Positions 2,908-61,621 of a stretch of DNA of 64,000 nucleotides are shown one piece after another; position 1 is the first letter of the stretch, and every line of letters starts with the position of its first letter. Below the pieces are notes generated by a model. It saw only the letters and a list, made by a program, of their open reading frames with translations, did no database searches and was not told where the DNA came from. A program made the position numbers and the translations under genes. The DNA is from a virus. The stretch lies in IMG/VR virus record IMGVR_UViG_3300044959_000237, positions 1-64,000 of that record. One strand, written 5' to 3'.

Positions 2908-2925
2908 TTTTTTCAGTCCTTGAAG

Positions 2926-3220
2926 AGGGGAGTATTCTGTTGCTGGGAACTCCCCGAACCCCACTTGATTCTGCGTCGAATCAAGAATTAATTTTTTCGA
3001 TGTATTGGCTGCATTATGCTGCCAATGCCATCTTCGCTACATTGTCGTTTGCAGCTATTTTCAAGGTTATAGGTAACCACCCGGCATCTCCGATGTTATT
3101 TTTCCATTGCGTCGAACCTTTTTCGCCCCCGCGAAAAAAATATTTTCATATTTCTTTGGTGGAGGCGACGGGTACTGCCCCCGTGTCCGCAATGGTGAAT
3201 AACATCTTCATCGATACCAA
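2926..3220 (-). ncRNA. ssrA: Circularly permuted (two-piece) tmRNA, alphaproteobacterial type; tag peptide ANDNVAKMALAA*
   Basis: The acceptor piece has the T-arm ACGGG-GGCAGTA-CCCGT, then CGCCTCC-A-CCA ending at 3157. A 26-nt intervening segment follows, and the coding piece starts GGGGGCG at 3130, giving a 7-bp acceptor stem with G3.U70. P2 pairs GCAATGG/CCATTGC and AATAACATC/GATGTTATT. The tag ORF is 3052-3014, and the 3' motif is GGGGTTCGGGGAG...GCAACAGAA...CTCCCC. Outer ends are approximate. Confidence 0.95.
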
Positions 3221-3224
3221 TACA

Positions 3225-3253
3225 TATTTATTACCGAATAGAATATTTGTCAA
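3225..3253 (-). promoter_or_regulatory. Promoter for the tmRNA: TTGACA-17 nt-TAAATA (sigma70-like -35 plus late-type ATAAATA)
   Basis: TTGACA at 3253-3248, a 17-nt spacer and TAAATA at 3230-3225, directly upstream of the acceptor piece. Confidence 0.65.
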
Positions 3254-3315
3254 TATGTATTTTTGTCTGAAAATGTGAAAAATCAGGAAAAAGTTTTTCT
3301 TGAAATTCGAAGATT

Positions 3316-15227: not shown

Positions 15228-16562
15228 TTACAAAGTTTTAACTTTGTAATATTTAGCATTTACAAGATATGGTTTACTGGAAAATGAAACCCACAATTCT
15301 TTGTAATCCGGAGAAACCAATGCTCCTGATATATCATCATATTCTGAAGCAGGAACATCAAAATGTTGCAATATTGATTCGAGATCTTCTTTGTTGCCAT
15401 ACAAAAGAATCCAATCAGCATCACCAATTTCACCGGCTTCTTTTTCTTCATCGAAATCAATAACTGCTCGATTTTCATTCATTAGCTTTTTACCAAGTTT
15501 TCTTTTTGGACCTCTATGTGAGTGATCTACACGATATTTTCCAGCACTTGAGCTTTTTGTTTCATCATAAGATTCTTCTATTCCGCAAACTTTCTTTGCC
15601 GAACCCCATTTTTCATGTCCACCATAATATTTTGCACGAATTGCAAAAGCCAGTTCACGAATTGTTTCCAGATCTTTTTCTGTTTTGTTTTTCTTTTCTC
15701 TGAGTTCTTTCCACTTTCTGCAAAGTTCTTCGACAGAATAGGGTGTCCATTTTCCTTTTTCACCTTTTTCCACTTCGAAATCGACACCCCATTTTTCACG
15801 AACTGGTTTTTTACCAGGTTCTTTTTTTGGTCCTCTGTGCGAATGATCTACATAGTCATATTTTCCTGCAGCAAGGCTTTTGGTTTCATCACGTTTCTTT
15901 TCCATGCTACAAACTTTCTTTGCCGAACCCCATTTTTCATGTCCACCATAATATTTTGCACGAATTGCAAAAGCCAGTTCACGAATTGTTTCCAGATCTT
16001 TTTCTGTTTTGTTTTTCTTTTCTCTGAGTTCTTTCCACTTTCTGCAAAGTTCTTCGACAGAATAGGGTGTCCATTTTCCTTTTTCACCTTTTTCCACTTC
16101 GAAATCGACACCCCATTTTTCACTTAATTTTTTCTGCATTTCAATATCTCCTTTATTTTCTGAATTTTTATTTGCATTACTTATTTTTTTTATGAAATTT
16201 TCGTCGTCGATTTTGTTTTCATTTTTGAAATCTATATCGAATTTGGTACTTTCGCCTGAAACCAGTTTTTCCAGTTCCAAATTTACATAGGAAAATTTCT
16301 GTTTCAAATCTTCCAAATTATTCAAGGTTGAATTCAATGTTTCATCGATTGCCGTCATATATTTTTCTGCTATGTTTACTCCGAAAATTTTTCTTATTCT
16401 GTCTACCAATGTATAAAATTTTTTTATTTTCCAATCATTCAGATCTTCGAGAATTTCTTGTAACAAATTGTTGACACCTTCAGCGGCTATAAGTATTTCT
16501 GCCTCTTCTATGTTCTTTTCTTCATTTATTGTTCTTATTTTTTTTCTCGTTTTGTTTATCAT
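15228..16562 (-). CDS. Probable prohead core/internal protein with a 108-aa tandem duplication
   Basis: Helical N-terminus (EAEILIAA...LVDRIRK) and two copies of EKWGVDFEV...SHRGPK. Confidence 0.7.
   Translation of the reverse strand: MINKTRKKIRTINEEKNIEEAEILIAAEGVNNLLQEILEDLNDWKIKKFYTLVDRIRKIFGVNIAEKYMTAIDETLNSTLNNLEDLKQKFSYVNLELEKLVSGESTKFDIDFKNENKIDDENFIKKISNANKNSENKGDIEMQKKLSEKWGVDFEVEKGEKGKWTPYSVEELCRKWKELREKKNKTEKDLETIRELAFAIRAKYYGGHEKWGSAKKVCSMEKKRDETKSLAAGKYDYVDHSHRGPKKEPGKKPVREKWGVDFEVEKGEKGKWTPYSVEELCRKWKELREKKNKTEKDLETIRELAFAIRAKYYGGHEKWGSAKKVCGIEESYDETKSSSAGKYRVDHSHRGPKRKLGKKLMNENRAVIDFDEEKEAGEIGDADWILLYGNKEDLESILQHFDVPASEYDDISGALVSPDYKELWVSFSSKPYLVNAKYYKVKTL
15586..16123. repeat. 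Direct repeat with 324-bp period (identical core 15586-15799 = 15910-16123)
   Basis: Identical core by inspection, with diverged extensions at ~15486-15570 and ~15807-15892. Confidence 0.92.
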
Positions 16563-40189: not shown

Positions 40190-42580
40190 TCAATAAAGTT
40201 TGTGTGAATAAATTATTGTCTTGTAAATTCTATACAATCTTTTTCCATCAGGACGTACGAATACGGAATCTCCACCATAAGCATTGACGTATTTCAATTT
40301 TGCCGAAGACAAATCCCAGAAATTTTTCAATTCGTAACGCCGTATCAAATCTGGTTGTATGACATAGATAACATTGCCTGAATCATTGAAATAGATATCT
40401 GCTAATCCATAATCATGTATTCCGAGAAAGACATTATCATAAGTTGCAGTAGAAATATTCCAATCAGAACTCAATGTATACGAATGTATTTTTCGACTCG
40501 TTCTTCCCACTATATAAAATTTTTTTCCATCAGGTCTGAAAAACATGCCAGTTGGTTGTAATTCTTCCGTATCTACAGAAAAACTTACATTATCATACGT
40601 TATTGTAGAAATATTCCATGGTATACTCAAAGTGTAAGAATATATACTACGATTATTATATCCAAGAATATACATTTTTGTTCCGTCGGGTTTGAAACGT
40701 ATACTTGTGGGCAAGAAATCTTGTGTAATAGAATAACTCGTACCATCATCAATTGCAGTGGAAATATTCCATGGAGAAGATAATGTATAAGAACGTATGG
40801 TTTTATTGAAAGCAGTTATGATATAAAATTTGGTACCATCAGGTTTGAAAAATAAATCTATAGGATAATCACCCAAAAATGGTAACAAATCCAAACTGTT
40901 TTCGATAATGAAAGGAAAATTCAATTCAAATGGTTTTATTGTACTCGAATGAAGAATTGAACCATTGGCAGAATCGGTTATATAAATTTTTTCTCCATTG
41001 TTCTTCAAAAAAACTCCGGTAGGAAAAGCATTGTAAGTGTTGATGTAGAAAATGTTGTTATCATATGTTCCACTACCAAGATTCCATGGAGTTCCAAGTG
41101 TGTATGAAGCAACAATATTATTGAAAGCATCGAATACGACCACATATACTTTTTTTCCGTCTGGTTTGAAAAATATCGATCTTGGAGTAGAGTCTTCATT
41201 TTCAATGTACAAAGAATCTCCATAACCATCGAAAGTTGCAGTCGAAATATCCCAAGAACTGGAAAGAGAATAAGAATATATTCCTTCAGAATCACCAGTT
41301 ATGTACATTTTTGTACCATCGAATTTGAAAAATAATCCAAAAGGTAATGATTCTTCACTTCCGACATCAAAATCCAAACCATCATATGTTGCCGAGGATA
41401 TATCCCATGCATTACTCAAGGTATAGGAGTATACCCTGGTATTTGTAGAACCAAGAATATACATTTTAGTACCATCTGTTTTGAAAAACAATGAAGTAGG
41501 ATTCGAATCTTCGCTTCCAACATAGAATTCCAAACCATCATATGTTGCAGTATCCACTTCCCATGGAGTGCTCAAAGTATACGAATATACTTTTGCAGTC
41601 GTAGAACCCAAAATATACATCTTGAGACCATCCGATCTGAAAAATATTTCTTCTGGTGTTTTATCTTCGTTTCCAACATAAAAGTTTTCAATGTTGTAAC
41701 TTGCAGTAGAAATTTCCCAAGAATTTTTCAAACTATAAGAAAAAATTTGTGCTTGATTCGAACCCAAAACATATACTCGACTTCCATCATTACGAAAGAA
41801 AAATGAAAAACTTGCCCAATCTTGTCCACCAACGAAAAAACTTTCATCATCGTAACTTGCCGAAGAAATATTCCATGGAGTACTCAATGTATATGAGTAA
41901 ATTCTATCATTGTCATCCCCGATTACATACATCTTTGTACCATCTGGTTTGAAAAATATTTCTTCCGGAAACAAATCTTCCGAAATTACTGAAAAACCAA
42001 AACCATCATAAGAAGCGGTAGAAATATCCCATGGAATACTTAATGTATAGGAGTAAATATTCGAATTGTCTTGTCCAGCAATATAAATTTTTGTTCCATC
42101 GGGTTTGAAATACAATGAATAAACCAAAGTATCTTCATCACCAAAATAGAAATTTACTCCATCATAACTTGCTGAAGATATTTCCCAAGGAATACTCAAT
42201 GTATAAGAATAAATTTGTTTGTTGTCATTTCCGAGTGTATATAATTTTGTGCCATCATTCTTGAAAAACATTGCGGTAAAATACGAATCTTCTGGTCCTA
42301 AAGTAAAACTCGAATTGTCGTAATTTGCCGTGGTAATATCCCACGGAATACTCAAAGTATAAGAATAAATTGTATTGGTATCATAATCGAGCACATACAA
42401 TTTTGTACCATCGTCTCTGAAATACAAATCCATTGGATACGTACTTTGATTTCCTAAAGAAAAAAAGATGTCATTTACAGGAACGGAAATATTGAAAAAA
42501 TTCAATCTTTCCATCAAAAAAAGACCGAAGGAAGAATTGTTTATTTTTATTTTTGCGTTTTCTATTTTCAAATGTACCAT
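40190..42580 (-). CDS. Beta-propeller repeat protein (~15 repeats of ~52 aa), likely virion-associated
   Basis: Repeats of FFKPDGTKMYI...IYSYTLSTPWDISTATYD; late motif at 42616-42610. Confidence 0.85.
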   Translation of the reverse strand: MVHLKIENAKIKINNSSFGLFLMERLNFFNISVPVNDIFFSLGNQSTYPMDLYFRDDGTKLYVLDYDTNTIYSYTLSIPWDITTANYDNSSFTLGPEDSYFTAMFFKNDGTKLYTLGNDNKQIYSYTLSIPWEISSASYDGVNFYFGDEDTLVYSLYFKPDGTKIYIAGQDNSNIYSYTLSIPWDISTASYDGFGFSVISEDLFPEEIFFKPDGTKMYVIGDDNDRIYSYTLSTPWNISSASYDDESFFVGGQDWASFSFFFRNDGSRVYVLGSNQAQIFSYSLKNSWEISTASYNIENFYVGNEDKTPEEIFFRSDGLKMYILGSTTAKVYSYTLSTPWEVDTATYDGLEFYVGSEDSNPTSLFFKTDGTKMYILGSTNTRVYSYTLSNAWDISSATYDGLDFDVGSEESLPFGLFFKFDGTKMYITGDSEGIYSYSLSSSWDISTATFDGYGDSLYIENEDSTPRSIFFKPDGKKVYVVVFDAFNNIVASYTLGTPWNLGSGTYDNNIFYINTYNAFPTGVFLKNNGEKIYITDSANGSILHSSTIKPFELNFPFIIENSLDLLPFLGDYPIDLFFKPDGTKFYIITAFNKTIRSYTLSSPWNISTAIDDGTSYSITQDFLPTSIRFKPDGTKMYILGYNNRSIYSYTLSIPWNISTITYDNVSFSVDTEELQPTGMFFRPDGKKFYIVGRTSRKIHSYTLSSDWNISTATYDNVFLGIHDYGLADIYFNDSGNVIYVIQPDLIRRYELKNFWDLSSAKLKYVNAYGGDSVFVRPDGKRLYRIYKTIIYSHKLY

Positions 42581-50816: not shown

Positions 50817-51221
50817 ATGATCGAGGAGGAAAAATATAAAAAGTTCAGAGAAATTTTGTGTGAAGATGATTATAATAAATTTTTGATGTTGAGAAAAAAA
50901 TTTTCATATCTTTCGTTTTTGATCTACAATGATGATTTGTACTATGGTATTATTCAAAAATCCACAAAAGAGTTTTTGAGTATTTATCTGTACACAGAAA
51001 TCAAAGATCATAAAGCAAGAATTTTATTCTTGAAAATAGGAGAGAATTGGTGGTGGGAAAGTAACAGAAAATTTCCCATAAATTTTTTTTACACAAAATG
51101 GGATCTACTTTTTCGAAAAACACTGAAAAATTTTTCATGGAATGGAATAGTTTGTTACGATGGACCTCTTTTCTACATCGAGCAAATCAAAACAAAATCC
51201 AAAATAATATCCTTGTATTAA
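50817..51221 (+). CDS. Hypothetical protein
   Basis: 134 aa with GENWWWESNRKFPIN motif. Confidence 0.7.
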   Translation: MIEEEKYKKFREILCEDDYNKFLMLRKKFSYLSFLIYNDDLYYGIIQKSTKEFLSIYLYTEIKDHKARILFLKIGENWWWESNRKFPINFFYTKWDLLFRKTLKNFSWNGIVCYDGPLFYIEQIKTKSKIISLY

Positions 51222-51805
51222 TTTTTTTCTTTCAGTGAAAGAAGATTCATTTTAACGACAATCATCAATGCATAGGCATATGCGTGACTTTTCTTGAAGA
51301 AATAAGCATTTTCATTTTTTGATTTTTTCCATACCTCTTTCATTGCCATGTCTTTTGGTTTTTTTCTGAGATAGCTTTTTCCGGGACGAATTATGGCCAA
51401 AAATGCTGCCAATTCGTGAATATTACCGACCTGAAATTTTTGAAGATCGTCATAATAATTGTGAATATGTGGTAATTGTTGCACAATATCTTTTCTTTTC
51501 AAAAGATTCCAATCAGGAGTCATATTCAGCAAATAATCGAGTTCTTCTGGAGTTTCAATGTCAAAATAAGAATAATTGTTCAGAATATCTATTTTGTAAA
51601 AACCAAATTTTTCAGCTTTTTCATAGGAAATAGATGACAAATCTGTTTCTGGATCGACTGGAATATCTTGCAAATAAATTCCGGAAGGATGTTTCGATAC
51701 ATTGTTTTTCTTGATTACAGAAGCGTTTATGTAATTGTTCAATTTTTCGAGAAGATCGTTACGATCTTTGATATCGATATCGATATCCATTTCAGTTATC
51801 CACAA
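51218..51805 (-). CDS. Miniature DNA polymerase III alpha (DnaE)-like catalytic domain
   Basis: Motifs DIDID, KHPSGIY, KIDILN, LAIIRPG and FKKSHAYAYA in ~190 aa. Confidence 0.85.
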   Translation of the reverse strand: MWITEMDIDIDIKDRNDLLEKLNNYINASVIKKNNVSKHPSGIYLQDIPVDPETDLSSISYEKAEKFGFYKIDILNNYSYFDIETPEELDYLLNMTPDWNLLKRKDIVQQLPHIHNYYDDLQKFQVGNIHELAAFLAIIRPGKSYLRKKPKDMAMKEVWKKSKNENAYFFKKSHAYAYALMIVVKMNLLSLKEKN

Positions 51806-52220: not shown

Positions 52221-52478
52221 TTATTGAATCCATTTTGTTTTCTCTTCCAAATTCTGAATTTTTCTCTGCATTTCTCTTTCCTTTCTTTTCATGACAAAAA
52301 TTTCCGAATCCATTCTTTTTATTTTTCTATCTTGCATGTCCAAAATTCTTTTCATTTCATTCAATTGTTTTTTCAGATTTTCAATTTCATGATTGTCGTT
52401 TTTGACGAAATTATGTTTCTGTTTTTCTCTGTCTTTTATTTCTTGAATTTTCGTTTTATATTGATTTTTGTCACTCAT
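52221..52478 (-). CDS. Coiled-coil hypothetical protein
   Basis: 85 aa, heptad-rich; AGGAG RBS. Confidence 0.6.
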   Translation of the reverse strand: MSDKNQYKTKIQEIKDREKQKHNFVKNDNHEIENLKKQLNEMKRILDMQDRKIKRMDSEIFVMKRKEREMQRKIQNLEEKTKWIQ

Positions 52479-53253
52479 CGATTTCTCCTAAAAATTTCGA
52501 AACATGATCTTCGATGATTTTCTTGTTGAAATTGGCTTTCAATTTGATTTTCTCGAACATGAATTTTCCTATTTGTTTCTTGAACAAATTCAATGTTTCT
52601 TCATTTTGTTCCTGTAGAAACTTTTTTCCTTCCAACGTACCGAACATGACAACAGGACTGATTTTTTTGGATATTATATGTTGCAGTATTACATAATATG
52701 GAGAGTCGAAGTATATTTCGATAATATTTTTGTCAATTTTTCCTTTTTTGAAATTACTGGTTTTTTCGACAAAGGTCTTGATGAATTTCAACGAATAATT
52801 CAACTCTTCTTCCAAATTGTTTTTATAATAATGAATTTTCATGAATTTTTCAATATTGTTTCTTTTTTTCCAAAAACGAAAATTGATCTTTTTATCGAGA
52901 CAATAGATAACATATTTTTTCTTTACGTTTTTTATATTGTCATTTTCTGGTAAAATTTCATTCAACCATTTGTTCAAATCTTCGAAAAAATGAAAGAGTT
53001 GACTTTTGGCATATTTGTCTATGGTGATTTTATTTTTTGTCAATTGATTTTTATATTCTTTTACCGTAACGAACAAATCGTAACCTGTACCATTTTTTTC
53101 ATTGTAATGTATATTTTCTATGACTTTTCTGACTTTGCATTTTTCATTGACATGATTTATCAATGATTTTTCGTAGAAGAATTCCTTTTTGCACATGAAA
53201 CAAACAAATTTTTTTCTTTTTCGACTTTCGACCTGTTTCACATCTTTTTTCAT
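52471..53253 (-). CDS. Protein with N-terminal C2H2/C2HC-like zinc finger
   Basis: FVCFMCKKEF-x6-NH-x4-C; ATG 53253 after GGGAGG. Confidence 0.7.
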   Translation of the reverse strand: MKKDVKQVESRKRKKFVCFMCKKEFFYEKSLINHVNEKCKVRKVIENIHYNEKNGTGYDLFVTVKEYKNQLTKNKITIDKYAKSQLFHFFEDLNKWLNEILPENDNIKNVKKKYVIYCLDKKINFRFWKKRNNIEKFMKIHYYKNNLEEELNYSLKFIKTFVEKTSNFKKGKIDKNIIEIYFDSPYYVILQHIISKKISPVVMFGTLEGKKFLQEQNEETLNLFKKQIGKFMFEKIKLKANFNKKIIEDHVSKFLGEIDE

Positions 53254-53303
53254 GAATCCTCCCACAAGAAAATCTTCGATTTCAGTTACGGGAGAAATTG
53301 TAA

Positions 53304-53639
53304 ACAGAAGCCGGTTGAATTTGGTCTCGTCGTCTTGTATATGCCAGAAATCTGCAATTGAATGTATAACTTCTGTCCATTCGACAATTTATGGAGGCTG
53401 ATTTTCTTTTTGAGAAAACCTGCCATATGACAGATTCTCCATTTCGAACGTTCGATTGAATTGCCTCTTTCGAAATTCAGATTCATCGTTTTTCCTTATG
53501 ATTGGCTGACATCGTTATCGGGCCGCGTTGTTCGTTCACTCAAGTCTTTTCATTCTTTTCAGAATGCTTGAAATTTCTATTTGGCAAGATTGTACTTCTT
53601 GCAATCTCTCGATTTCTGGAGAAGGTAATTGGCTTCCGT
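53304..53639 (-). ncRNA. Candidate structured ncRNA of unknown class
   Basis: Two nested 9-bp long-range stems and several hairpins. G.U pairs and a GAAA tetraloop occur only on the minus strand. Confidence 0.55.
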
Positions 53640-53640
53640 A

Positions 53641-54333
53641 TCAAGCATTTTCTTGTTCTATGTATTCTTCTATCATTTTTCTCAATTCTACGCTGTTTTT
53701 CAAAATTTTTTCAAGAATGCTTTTTTCTTCCTTTTTCAACTCTGGAAATTTGTTTTCAATGAAATAATTTATTTTGTCTTCCTTGTTCATTTTTCTTTTT
53801 GTTTTTTTGGAGAAAATTGGCAAAAATTTTTCTTCTCCAGTCATATATTCATTGAATTTCAATGCTATTGTATACGACACAATACAAAAAAGTTTGTACT
53901 GTATTTTTGGAAAATTCACCAGTGCCCAAAAATTTCTATTTACTATATCATTGACAACATACACATAAGCTGAAGTAACTTTTTCTATATTGTCAATCGT
54001 TGTGGGCCATTTACCTTTGCCATCACCTTTTTTTCTTCCTTGTTTTTTTGCTTCCTCGAAATTTATTGTTTCTTTGATACACGAGGAGATGTTTTTCAAA
54101 ATCAAAAATGAATTTTTCTTCCAAAACTCAGCTAATTCCTGTTCTCCAATTTCTTTTTCCAGTTCTTCATAAAAGTTCGTTTGAAAAAGTCGAATGTTTT
54201 CGAGAATATCATTGAACAATTTCCAATGATTTTTTTTCTCGTTCTTTGTATTTATTTCTGTATTTATTTCTTCTTCAGCAAATTCTTGCCAGTTTTCGAA
54301 CAGTTGATTCATGTTTTTTTCCTTTATCCACAT
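53641..54333 (-). CDS. Hypothetical protein, possibly clamp-loader small subunit (gp62)-like
   Basis: VNDIVNRNFW...PKIQYKLF pattern, within the replication gene block. Confidence 0.5.
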   Translation of the reverse strand: MWIKEKNMNQLFENWQEFAEEEINTEINTKNEKKNHWKLFNDILENIRLFQTNFYEELEKEIGEQELAEFWKKNSFLILKNISSCIKETINFEEAKKQGRKKGDGKGKWPTTIDNIEKVTSAYVYVVNDIVNRNFWALVNFPKIQYKLFCIVSYTIALKFNEYMTGEEKFLPIFSKKTKRKMNKEDKINYFIENKFPELKKEEKSILEKILKNSVELRKMIEEYIEQENA

Positions 54334-54406
54334 TATAGAAAAAAATTTTTATCAATCAAATAAATAAATATGAATGGTAATTCAACAATCAAAGGGAATT
54401 CAAATA

Positions 54407-54754
54407 ATGGGAAGACCACTGAATAAAAGATTTTTTGGAAATCCTACGACAAAACCTGGTTTGCAAATAAAAGTATCTGCAGATTTGGGATCAGGAAAAG
54501 TTCCCGCTTGGATCGTAGAACAGGTCGGAACGAGACAATTTATTGTCACTGATGGCACCACGACAACAAGATGTTTTCTTGTTCAAAACGTTACTCAGCC
54601 CGGCGAAGCCGTGGTAAGAGTATATTTGAGTGGTGGTGTTGTGGAAACTGCAAGAACGATACAGGCACGTAGAGTCAAAACTTTCGAAGGTTCCGATGTG
54701 GTTTGGTCGTTCGATCCTCCTGCCAACGATAAAGCTCAAATACTCGGAGCCTGA
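54407..54754 (+). CDS. Virion structural protein (MGRPLNKRFFG-type)
   Basis: ATAAATA at 54364-54370 and AGGGA RBS; beta-rich. Confidence 0.7.
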   Translation: MGRPLNKRFFGNPTTKPGLQIKVSADLGSGKVPAWIVEQVGTRQFIVTDGTTTTRCFLVQNVTQPGEAVVRVYLSGGVVETARTIQARRVKTFEGSDVVWSFDPPANDKAQILGA

Positions 54755-55295: not shown

Positions 55296-56816
55296 CTATA
55301 TTTTATTGTATGTAAAAGGATAATTTGCTTTTTTGTAAATTGCTTTTCTCATCGAGACATGTCTTTTGCTTCTTTTGGTAGAACCACAAATATCATATAT
55401 TATGACATGATTTTTTTCCTGTGTTTTTCTCAAACCTCTTCCTATGCTCTGTAATACTCTTATTATGCTTTTTCCTGCTTCGATCAGAACAATATTGTAT
55501 ATTTTTGGAATATTGATTCCTACCGATGCAACTCCATAAGTTGCAATCAGTACAACATTGTCTTTTTCTTTTATCATGTTGAATTTTTCAATTTTTTCTT
55601 TCATTTTTACCGAACCTGTAACAACATGGCTGTTTTTTGTCATTTCGCCAAGTTTTCTTGCTGTTTTTACAAAATCGACCAAAACCAGAGTATTACCATC
55701 ATTCGATATTTCATTTATCAGATTCGAAATAATTTCAAGTCTTCTCGAATCGTTCAAAAGATAATTCTTTTCTTCCTGATAAGTTTCGAAATTTTTCTTG
55801 TCATCGGATATTTCTATAATGTGAACATCACAACTACTCAGAATACCTTTGTTTTGCAAATCATTTGCGGACATGAAATTTATCGGAGGACCGATCAACG
55901 ATTTTATTGCATAGAAAAGATAATTTTCTTCTGGAAGTGTAGCGGTGAGTCCCCAACGAATTGGAACATTTTTGTACATGTTTCCCAATATTTTTTTGAG
56001 AGAAGGTGCTTTTGCAATGTGACATTCGTCAACTATCACTGCAACCATGTTCTTTGTAATTTTTTCATATATATCTTCTTCTTCTTTTTTACTTTTTCGA
56101 ATTTTTTCAAGTGATTGCCATGTTGCTATTATATGTTTGTTTTCAGTATCCTTTTGATCACCGAAAAATACACCAACATCCAGACCAATATTTTTGTAAT
56201 CTTCGTAAGTTTGTTTGACCAAGGTTTTGCTCGGAACTATCGTGATCGTTCTTCCTTCTTTTTCTACTATTTTTGCCAAAACTGCAGTAATGATGGTTTT
56301 GCCTGCTCCGGTAGCTACTTCCTGAACAGCGTGTCTTCTTTGCAAGAAATAGTTTACAACTTCGACTTGGTAATCTCTCAAGATAATATCTTTTCCTGCC
56401 AAATGATGTGTTTCTGGCCATTTTATATTCTGATTTTTCAAATAATTTTCATCTATCGCATCGAAAGTATAAATTTGTTTGTTTTGTCTTCTGTCTTCTT
56501 TTTGTATTTTGTATTTGAATTCATCCAGAACTTCCAGTATTTCTTTCAACAAATGAAAATAACTTTTTCCGTTCAAATCGAAGTAGGAAATTTTTCCGTT
56601 CCATCGTCCTATTTTATAGGAAGGAAGATATTTTGCAGAAGGATCATAGAAACTCATTTTTTTGTTCAGACTCGAAAGAATATGGGTCTCGACGTTTTCA
56701 AGTTTTATGTTGACTTCATCGAGTATTATCAATTTGCAAATCTTTTCATCTTTTCTAAGTTTTCTGATATCCGGTTTGTTTTTTGTTTCGACTTTTTTCA
56801 TATTGAATTTTTCCAT
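55296..56816 (-). CDS. uvsW: SF2 DNA helicase UvsW
   Basis: Motifs LRDYQ, ATGAGKT, VDECH, GLTAT, GINIP and QSIGRGLR. Confidence 0.92.
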   Translation of the reverse strand: MEKFNMKKVETKNKPDIRKLRKDEKICKLIILDEVNIKLENVETHILSSLNKKMSFYDPSAKYLPSYKIGRWNGKISYFDLNGKSYFHLLKEILEVLDEFKYKIQKEDRRQNKQIYTFDAIDENYLKNQNIKWPETHHLAGKDIILRDYQVEVVNYFLQRRHAVQEVATGAGKTIITAVLAKIVEKEGRTITIVPSKTLVKQTYEDYKNIGLDVGVFFGDQKDTENKHIIATWQSLEKIRKSKKEEEDIYEKITKNMVAVIVDECHIAKAPSLKKILGNMYKNVPIRWGLTATLPEENYLFYAIKSLIGPPINFMSANDLQNKGILSSCDVHIIEISDDKKNFETYQEEKNYLLNDSRRLEIISNLINEISNDGNTLVLVDFVKTARKLGEMTKNSHVVTGSVKMKEKIEKFNMIKEKDNVVLIATYGVASVGINIPKIYNIVLIEAGKSIIRVLQSIGRGLRKTQEKNHVIIYDICGSTKRSKRHVSMRKAIYKKANYPFTYNKI

Positions 56817-61390: not shown

Positions 61391-61621
61391 TTTTTTCTCC
61401 TTTCTTCAGCCTTGTTGAGTTTCATGTTAGCCAGCATGAGTTGTAATTCAACCTGCGTAACTAACAAAAGAATTATATGTTTCACTTGTTCTGAATTCAA
61501 TATAAAAGTCGAACGAAAAAAAATTTTTCGTGAAACTTTTCAATTTGTTCGAAAAACAAAGCAAAATTCTTCCAAGTTTTCTAAAATGAATTTTCGAAAA
61601 AAAAAACTTGCAAGATACATT

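Follow-up and report, generated by a model that had tools for sequence, protein, structure and literature searches.

Morons, a concept of the Hendrix laboratory, are small independent cassettes that separate two genes found side by side in related phages and whose base composition usually deviates from that of their surroundings, and free-standing homing endonuclease genes of the seg and mob kinds occupy positions between conserved genes of T4-like phages. MPME1 and MPME2, the ultra-small mobile genetic elements of mycobacteriophages, are 439 bp long; they are present in multiple copies at numerous positions among closely related phages, where the pre-integration sites are precisely defined and 6 bp of sequence are added (PMC3029335). 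Here, we analyse a 387-nt gap poor in open reading frames (ORFs) at positions 53254-53640, minus strand, of a 64,000-nt stretch of viral DNA (hereafter, the window), which represents the first 64 kb of the 111,268-bp IMG/VR virus record IMGVR_UViG_3300044959_000237 (32% guanine-cytosine (GC) content). Given that the record is only ~35% complete by CheckV, its length implies a whole phage of jumbo size, and the source, which is uncultured, belongs to the Rak2/PA5oct/Atu_ph07/Phosso group of jumbo phages. Most of the gap is occupied by a 336-nt core (53304-53639, minus strand), which was delineated from sequence and folding and is enclosed by a 9-bp inverted repeat predicted to form a closing helix in the transcript. 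An earlier note, made by inspection of the DNA letters, had interpreted this core as a highly structured non-coding RNA (ncRNA), a ribozyme or a non-autonomous mobile element. We find that the gap is a lineage-specific insertion between two genes of the replication module, and we tentatively favour its interpretation as a relic, that is, an inverted repeat-bounded non-coding insertion co-transcribed with the operon, a reading to which we attach a probability somewhat short of one half.

The insert resembles several described systems in part. Like MPME1 and MPME2, it measures a few hundred base pairs, has short inverted repeats, carries a small ORF at most and separates genes that relatives carry intact and side by side; unlike the MPMEs, it is represented by a single copy, with no second site, and displays no sequence similarity to them, and the available comparison is with relatives that are not close. 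Its repeat measures 9 bp, whereas that of the MPMEs is reportedly 11 bp long. As in the case of morons, the insert separates genes that are adjacent in relatives and differs from its neighbours in GC content, but it contains no convincing ORF and no terminator, matches promoters at chance level and has the dinucleotide signature native to the phage. With the remnants of seg and mob genes, it shares the lineage-specific intergenic location in a conserved T4-like replication module, the same orientation and stop codons in every frame, but no residual GIY-YIG or HNH similarity is found in any frame. Finally, the length of 300-400 nt, the local GC enrichment in the genome of an AT-rich phage and the long-range closing helix are reminiscent of GOLLD, ROOL and HEARO RNAs and of ORF-less group I introns, in contrast to which the insert yields no covariance model match, has an undefined structural ensemble and no homologues, and interrupts no gene. 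As there is neither a second copy nor a target-site duplication, and no ORF or endonuclease remnant is present, we do not assign the insert to the MPMEs, the morons or the homing endonuclease remnants.

A lineage-specific insertion in the replication operon

The gap extends from the TGA stop codon of one minus-strand gene to the Shine-Dalgarno (SD) sequence and ATG of the next. The upstream gene, p230 (53641-54333, minus strand; 230 aa), matches PHROG 11758 (E = 2.8e-5) and, by phmmer, an ORF of Sinorhizobium phage Phosso (E = 3.4e-7), and is orthologous to Phosso gp432 and to the ORFs preceding the zinc-finger gene in the IMG/VR relatives. The downstream gene, p260 (52471-53253, minus strand; 260 aa), encodes a protein with a C2HC-type zinc-finger N-terminus, matches PHROG 11058 (E = 2.7e-10) and is the orthologue of Phosso gp433. 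A hidden Markov model (HMM) constructed from 19 distinct p230 relatives aligns up to residue 224 of 230 (E = 2.3e-16), and the basic tail at the N-terminus of p260 has an equivalent in the Phosso orthologue, indicating that both flanking genes are complete. Two possible extensions of these genes into the gap were considered and rejected: a p230 read-through or lost C-terminus, because the alignment to the family HMM does not extend past the TGA into the 34 codons that remain open there, and an N-terminal extension of p260, because the 45 open codons ahead of it offer no start codon and its N-terminus already matches that of the Phosso protein.

Probing with p230 and p260 showed both orthologues to be present in Phosso as well as in ten IMG/VR loci (L025-L029, L050, L052, L054, L055, L026). 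In each of the seven junctions that were read, namely those of Phosso (L010), L025, L026, L050, L052, L054 and L055, the stop codon of the p230-like gene overlaps the start of the p260-like gene, in the form of ATGA, GTGA or TAATG, with an overlap of 17 nt in Phosso; a 73-nt spacer is present at this junction in Agrobacterium phage Atu_ph07. The search for an empty site that the earlier note had recommended thus finds the flanking genes adjacent in relatives and, given their overlap in seven of these, identifies the ~390 nt as a lineage-specific insertion. The seven relatives with the empty site are distant, their mini-DnaE proteins being 44%-48% identical to that of the present phage. Closer relatives are known from their proteins, at 92%-93% identity on an 11.4-kb JGI contig and at 65%-67% on two Logan contigs. 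The truncated start of one of these proteins, P0004 from the 92% relative, was considered as a sign of presence/absence polymorphism and dismissed, since the predicted protein starts within the CxxC motif, which points to a contig edge as the probable cause of the truncation.

The configuration of the flanking genes bears directly on the hypothesis that the gap is a self-splicing group I or group II intron or connects p230 with p260 through translational bypass. The two genes indeed share one reading frame, the core measures exactly 336 nt, that is, 112 codons, and its size and GC enrichment are similar to those of ORF-less phage group I introns. However, the two genes are separate, complete ORFs in all relatives, four in-frame stop codons lie between p230 and p260, no intron family matches the gap at E<=10, and the sole GCU codon on which a gene 60-like hop could land is out of frame. 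Considering that the flanking genes are complete and that their counterparts overlap in seven relatives, this hypothesis is effectively refuted, and we assign it a vanishingly small probability.

Composition and boundaries of the insert

The description of the locus in the earlier note as a long, GC-richer gap that follows the stop codon of p230 in a minus-strand operon is accurate: over its 387 nt, the GC content is 0.375-0.39, compared with 0.25-0.30 in the flanks, and is the highest among all gaps of at least 100 nt between the ORFs picked in the window. Among all 387-nt windows of the genome, a GC content of 0.39 corresponds to just the 90th percentile. The dinucleotide odds of the gap are close to those of the genome (TA, 0.40 vs. 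0.48; CG, 1.22 vs. 1.36; GA, 1.43 vs. 1.42; TC, 1.60 vs. 1.36), and this phage-native signature indicates that the gap consists of phage-lineage or long-resident DNA rather than of a fresh import from an unrelated genome.

The outer inverted repeat is matched at eight of nine positions at the DNA level. Its left arm begins 2 nt past the p230 stop codon, whereas the right arm terminates 51 nt upstream of the p260 start codon, with 50 further inserted nucleotides beyond the arm. No target-site duplication longer than 1 nt is discernible (flanks ...TTGAT / element / TTACA...). Within the 111-kb record, which covers only ~35% of the genome, the gap is single-copy, and a search of the record for a repeat family yielded none. 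Accordingly, of the mobile element proposed in the earlier note, the insertion is retained, whereas mobility is unproven: the 111 kb contain a single copy, the collections searched contain none, and no target site is duplicated.

A 12-bp perfect palindrome, TCGAACGTTCGA, is located at 53444-53455 and occurs once in the genome. This unique palindrome and the location of the gap inside the helicase/mini-DnaE/primase cluster would be compatible with a control region acting at the DNA level, either origin-like or protein-binding; alternatively, the gap could be a long leader controlling translation of the zinc-finger gene. TTCGAA-type palindromes were examined as a possible special signal and rejected as such, because their number (398 observed vs. 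380 expected from pentamers) is accounted for by the lower-order composition of the genome. Neither iterons nor an AT-rich unwinding element were found in the gap, which is GC-richer than its surroundings, and the relatives do without the insert altogether.

The translational variant of this hypothesis concerns the initiation site of p260 (53251-53263, minus strand), which consists of a GGGAGGA SD sequence (53263-53257) and the ATG (53253-53251) and, as an independent site, takes the place of the ATGA coupling observed in relatives. The segment containing the SD sequence (53266-53254; UGUGGGAGGAUUC) is predicted to pair with positions 53172-53184 within p260 (p = 0.97 in a 700-nt context). The putative helix comprises 13 bp, including four G.U pairs, involves codons ~24-28 of p260 and leaves the AUG in a loop. 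Sequestration of the SD sequence by this helix could provide a possible means of translational control of p260, but the helix lies outside the insert. The same pairing is preferred over the IS200/IS605-like end hairpin that the earlier note had placed at 53265-53303. Altogether, we regard a control region, whether DNA-level or translational, as very unlikely to explain the insert.

Coding potential of the insert

Coding potential was evaluated with a 3-periodic Markov model trained on two thirds of the long ORFs of the record. The per-codon scores are 0.15 +/- 0.13 for true frames and -0.52 +/- 0.24 for off-frames, whereas all frames of the gap score between -0.13 and +0.04, that is, between the two distributions, with no frame standing out. 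The longest ORF on the sense strand, of 66 aa (53286-53486, minus strand), starts in an AAGGA-N6-ATG context and is probably not a gene. Its coding score, -0.124 per codon, falls at about the 5th-6th percentile of true frames. In its GC content, which increases from the first to the third codon position (GC1<GC2<GC3), and in the lack of excess purines at the first position, it differs from all genes that were checked. ORFs of this length appear in 7% of dinucleotide shuffles, and long open frames come easily in a genome depleted of TA.

Protein-level conservation of the 66-aa ORF, which the earlier note had named among the observations that would speak against an RNA, was not found: HMMER, run exhaustively against 1.84 billion representatives, identified no homologue, the single match being to a 25-residue stretch of a 1455-aa protein, and the exact sequence is missing from a 15-billion-protein collection in which both neighbours from the same contig are present. 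The AlphaFold2 model has a predicted local distance difference test (pLDDT) score of 55, and the Atlas recognition score is within the range of shuffled sequences.

These results have to be weighed against the possibility that the insert is a small moron-type cassette, in which the 66-aa ORF would encode a real lineage-specific basic protein and the remainder would be untranslated flank. The rarity of sense-strand ORFs of such length among the shuffles, the well-spaced SD-like AAGGA and the insertion with deviating GC content between genes that are adjacent in relatives, which is the classic definition of a moron, are all consistent with this scenario. On the other side of the balance are the lack of a homologue among the 1.84 billion representatives and of the exact sequence in a collection that holds both neighbours, a coding score at the lower edge of true frames and equalled by other frames of the gap, the inverted GC gradient with flat purine periodicity, the low pLDDT and protein language model recognition, and the ease with which open frames arise in a TA-depleted genome. 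We consider a moron-type cassette decidedly unlikely.

A decayed gene was considered as well. No match to Pfam or PHROG was obtained for any gap frame, whether as stop-to-stop pieces or as read-through translations with X at the stop codons, and the read-through frame common to p230 and p260 (P0127) has no homologue; a pseudogene of a known family is therefore rejected. The read-through frame displays a weak GC1 excess (0.47/0.35/0.36 at the three codon positions), which is marginally significant and would fit a decayed ORF. Translation with an alternative genetic code was likewise rejected and code 11 retained, given that the frames mostly close within a few codons after TGA. TGA terminates 60% of the ORFs, a preference that is explained by genome-wide avoidance of TA (odds 0.48), with CTAG and TTAA at 0.11 and 0.25 of expectation, respectively. 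Such a strong genome signature, which also includes CG at 1.36 and GA/TC at ~1.4, could falsely suggest stop codon recoding at 32% GC.

Predicted RNA fold and searches for homologues

The robust elements of the predicted minus-strand fold are limited to the outer helix and three small hairpins. In the outer helix, the 5' arm ACGGAAGCC (53631-53639) pairs with the 3' arm GGCUUCUGU (53304-53312) through one G.U and eight further positions; eight of the pairs have probabilities of 0.96-1.0 and the terminal A-U pair of 0.72-0.86, and the helix is also predicted when 50-300 nt of flank are included. The second, nested stem is a perfect 9-bp complement between CCAGAAAUC (53611-53619), a 9-mer found six times in the genome, and GAUUUCUGG (53344-53352). 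Thus, both long-range complements described in the earlier note exist where it had placed them, but the inner one has a probability of just 0.15, because GAUUUCUGG favours a local partner, CAGAAGU. Hairpin H1 (53584-53602) consists of a GCAAGA/UCUUGC stem with a 7-nt loop (p 0.88-0.97), H2 (53541-53570) of CAUUCU-GAAA-AGAAUG, with a GNRA-type loop, inside a 4-bp CAAG/CUUG stem (p 0.83-1.0), and H3 (53504-53524; p 0.91-0.95) coincides with the most G+C-rich segment of the gap. The local hairpins of the earlier note are present at its coordinates, except that the outer stem of H2 is one pair shorter than the UCAAG/CUUGA originally written. Overall, ~30 of some 100 predicted pairs exceed a probability of 0.8.

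The minus strand folds with a free energy of -79.1 kcal/mol, corresponding to a z-score of about -2.5 (-2.46 to -2.50), and none of 100 shuffled sequences was equally stable, whereas the plus strand has a z-score of -0.76. This strand asymmetry is real. The argument that the earlier note had drawn from G.U wobbles confined to the minus strand depends on one G.U among the 18 bp that make up the two long stems. As a background, the identical shuffle test was applied on the sense strand to 23 windows of 336 nt drawn from coding sequences of this genome. Their mean z-score is -0.58 (standard deviation 1.46), and two of the 23 reach -2.46 or less (-4.92 and -2.50); the transfer-messenger RNA (tmRNA) of the phage itself, which served as a positive control, has a z-score of -6.2. 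Thus, the core folds better than its dinucleotide-shuffled versions but no better than the genomic background. The same pertains to the definition of the ensemble: the mean positional entropy is 1.09 for the candidate, 1.06 for the coding background and 0.38 for the tmRNA, and bases paired with p>0.9 make up 0.14, 0.14 and 0.42 of the total, respectively. By these model-based measures, the ensemble is as ill-defined as that of the mRNAs of this genome, and beyond the closing helix and the three hairpins the predicted fold is undefined.

Long-range helices were also counted across the genome. Of the genome windows, 3.8% contain more than one long-range helix of 9 bp that includes four or more G-C pairs, and 61% contain perfect 9-bp inverted repeats of any composition. 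The predicted structure of the gap appears to exceed chance only marginally. The closing helix is explained by the inverted repeat, and the lower free energy by the extra GC. The evidence for a highly structured RNA is thus weak.

Searches for known RNA families and for homologues of the gap were negative throughout. With Rfam 15 at gathering thresholds, tmRNA (2926-3257) is the sole match in the whole window, and at E<=10 the region 52900-54000 yields three noise matches, none of them within 53254-53640, so the statement that the gap corresponds to no known RNA family is upheld. By blastn, the gap DNA has no match in 50,697 phage records or 72,556 plasmids; by nhmmer and blastn, nothing was found in 53 related mini-DnaE loci, and nothing in the whole records of five relatives. 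Protein-anchored scans via p230, p260 and the helicase retrieved no gap homologue. Exact-pattern scans of viral, metagenome and GTDB genome collections, which covered records other than the very near ones, returned nothing or chance matches of 18-29 nt in unrelated GC-rich contigs. With respect to transcription signals, a sigma70-like site is located at 53714-53685, just upstream of the gap, but promoter-like sites occur at a frequency near chance (22 found vs. 14.4 expected). No terminator was detected for the gap, the phage late/sigma70 promoter motif TATAAATA is not present in it, and k-mer enrichment was uninformative.

Against this background, the gap could still harbour a functional, previously undescribed structured RNA specific to the lineage, either an ncRNA processed from the operon transcript or a domain that acts in cis and is sealed by the 9-bp helix. 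In AT-rich genomes, islands of high GC content such as this one are a classic signature of structured RNAs, and the tRNAs and the tmRNA are the other GC-rich non-coding spots of this genome; furthermore, the fold is favoured on the minus strand (z of -2.50 vs. -0.76), the closing helix is robust to the length of the flanks, one hairpin carries a GNRA tetraloop, no frame is coding, a sigma70-like site lies just upstream, and 387 nt have been retained in a compact operon. However, a z-score inside the mRNA background and an ensemble as diffuse as that of mRNA, unlike that of the tmRNA, the small share of confident pairs, the lack of any Rfam match at E<=10 and of homologues in all collections searched, the absence of the sequence from this site in seven relatives and from the whole records of five, and the chance-level promoters with no terminator all argue in the opposite direction. 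Accordingly, the interpretation of the core as a highly structured RNA or ribozyme is not sustained, and we consider a functional RNA of any kind unlikely. The more specific proposal that the 336-nt core would represent a new class of phage RNA, a helix-closed domain cut from, or acting within, the operon mRNA with a regulatory, decoy or catalytic role, strikes us as distinctly improbable.

Origin of the insert

We thus return to the interpretation of the insert as a relic. A lineage-specific segment of ~390 bp would have landed, or grown, between two replication module genes that appear to be translationally coupled in related jumbo phages. It might derive either from a decayed small phage gene or from an element resembling miniature inverted-repeat transposable elements (MITEs) that is no longer active. 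The insert would be carried passively and transcribed within the minus-strand operon mRNA, where the inverted repeat would fold into a stable closing helix accompanied by three short local hairpins, the remainder having no defined fold. The disruption of the ATGA coupling would leave the zinc-finger gene to be initiated from its own strong GGGAGGA SD sequence, and we infer that the strength of this sequence is a consequence of the broken coupling.

Several observations weigh against this interpretation. A useless segment of 387 nt should be lost fast from a tightly packed phage operon. The GC content of the gap is ~10 points above that of the flanks and higher than in all other non-tRNA intergenic gaps of the window, and the GC-rich gaps elsewhere in the genome contain tRNAs. 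The fold has a z-score of -2.5, matched by none of 100 shuffles and confined to the transcribed strand, and two nested long-range helices are encountered in less than 4% of genome windows. With respect to a mobile origin, no duplication of the target site is seen, and MITEs would be expected to have repeats longer than 9 bp. Finally, with neither a pseudogene parent nor a second copy having been found, the designation ‘relic’ is an argument by elimination.

Genomic context and other features of the phage

The gap is embedded in a minus-strand series of replication genes, the helicase/mini-DnaE/primase cluster. Starting from a UvsW-type helicase (55296-56816, minus strand; Pfam ResIII/DEAD/UvsW_N), the order is a 172-aa protein, a plus-strand gene for a 126-aa protein, p230, the gap, p260, two small ORFs and mini-DnaE. 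The 126-aa gene (54374-54754, plus strand; GC content 0.43) encodes a homologue of Phosso gp429 (E = 1e-18) and has a good coding score of 0.14 per codon; it explains a still GC-richer island that immediately precedes p230 and might otherwise pass for another RNA candidate. Mini-DnaE (51218-51805, minus strand; 195 aa; PHROG 11778, E = 6.5e-62) is 38%-44% identical to its counterparts in Sinorhizobium phage Phosso, Pseudomonas phage PA5oct, Agrobacterium phage Atu_ph07, XacN1 and the Rak2 group, and the gene order around it is identical in Phosso and Atu_ph07. The protein is widespread, with at least 247 clusters at E<=1e-20 in the protein collection and occurrences in 96 cultured jumbo phage records, and is always followed by a small opposite-strand gene and then by a virion structural protein.

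The phage encodes a complete two-piece tmRNA of the permuted, alpha type (2923-3257, minus strand; RF01849, 149 bits; RF04321, 104 bits), for which ARAGORN predicts the tag ANDNVAKMALAA. tmRNAs are mentioned in the literature on huge and jumbo phages, and the permuted form may hint at an alphaproteobacterial host. ARAGORN also reports a 99-nt tRNA-Glu(UUC) at 61493-61591 on the minus strand, with the anticodon at position 39; as this segment has no Rfam tRNA match even at E<=1, it is probably spurious or else represents a tRNA that is highly aberrant or contains an intron. Beyond the window, at positions 100776-103626 of the record, there is a cluster of five tRNAs (Ala-UGC, Gly-UCC, Ser-UGA, Ser-GCU and Thr-UGU), which explains most of the GC-rich gaps in its region. 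Further GC-rich gaps of the record, at 103966-104348, 107502-107734 and 108125-108346 (the last with a z-score of -2.8 on the minus strand), may correspond to uncalled genes.

Two repeat-containing ORFs were also noted. A 796-aa ORF (40190-42580, minus strand) consists of approximately eleven tandem repeats of 156 nt (52 aa), which are 60%-77% identical to one another, and probably encodes a repeat-domain structural or fibre-like protein. A 444-aa ORF (15228-16562) includes a direct repeat of 266 nt (15534-15799 and 15858-16123), the copies of which are 93% identical and 324 nt apart, and looks like the product of a recent internal duplication.

Implications

The significance of the insert depends on which of the above interpretations applies. 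A functional RNA would add a large class of ncRNA to the jumbo phages, and would place it in a replication module for which none is known, but the present evidence fails to set the gap apart from mRNA. If the gap is a relic, as we tentatively favour, it would represent an ordinary case of a coupled phage operon that was split and subsequently patched, with the downstream gene gaining a strong ribosome-binding site, and would have little wider consequence.

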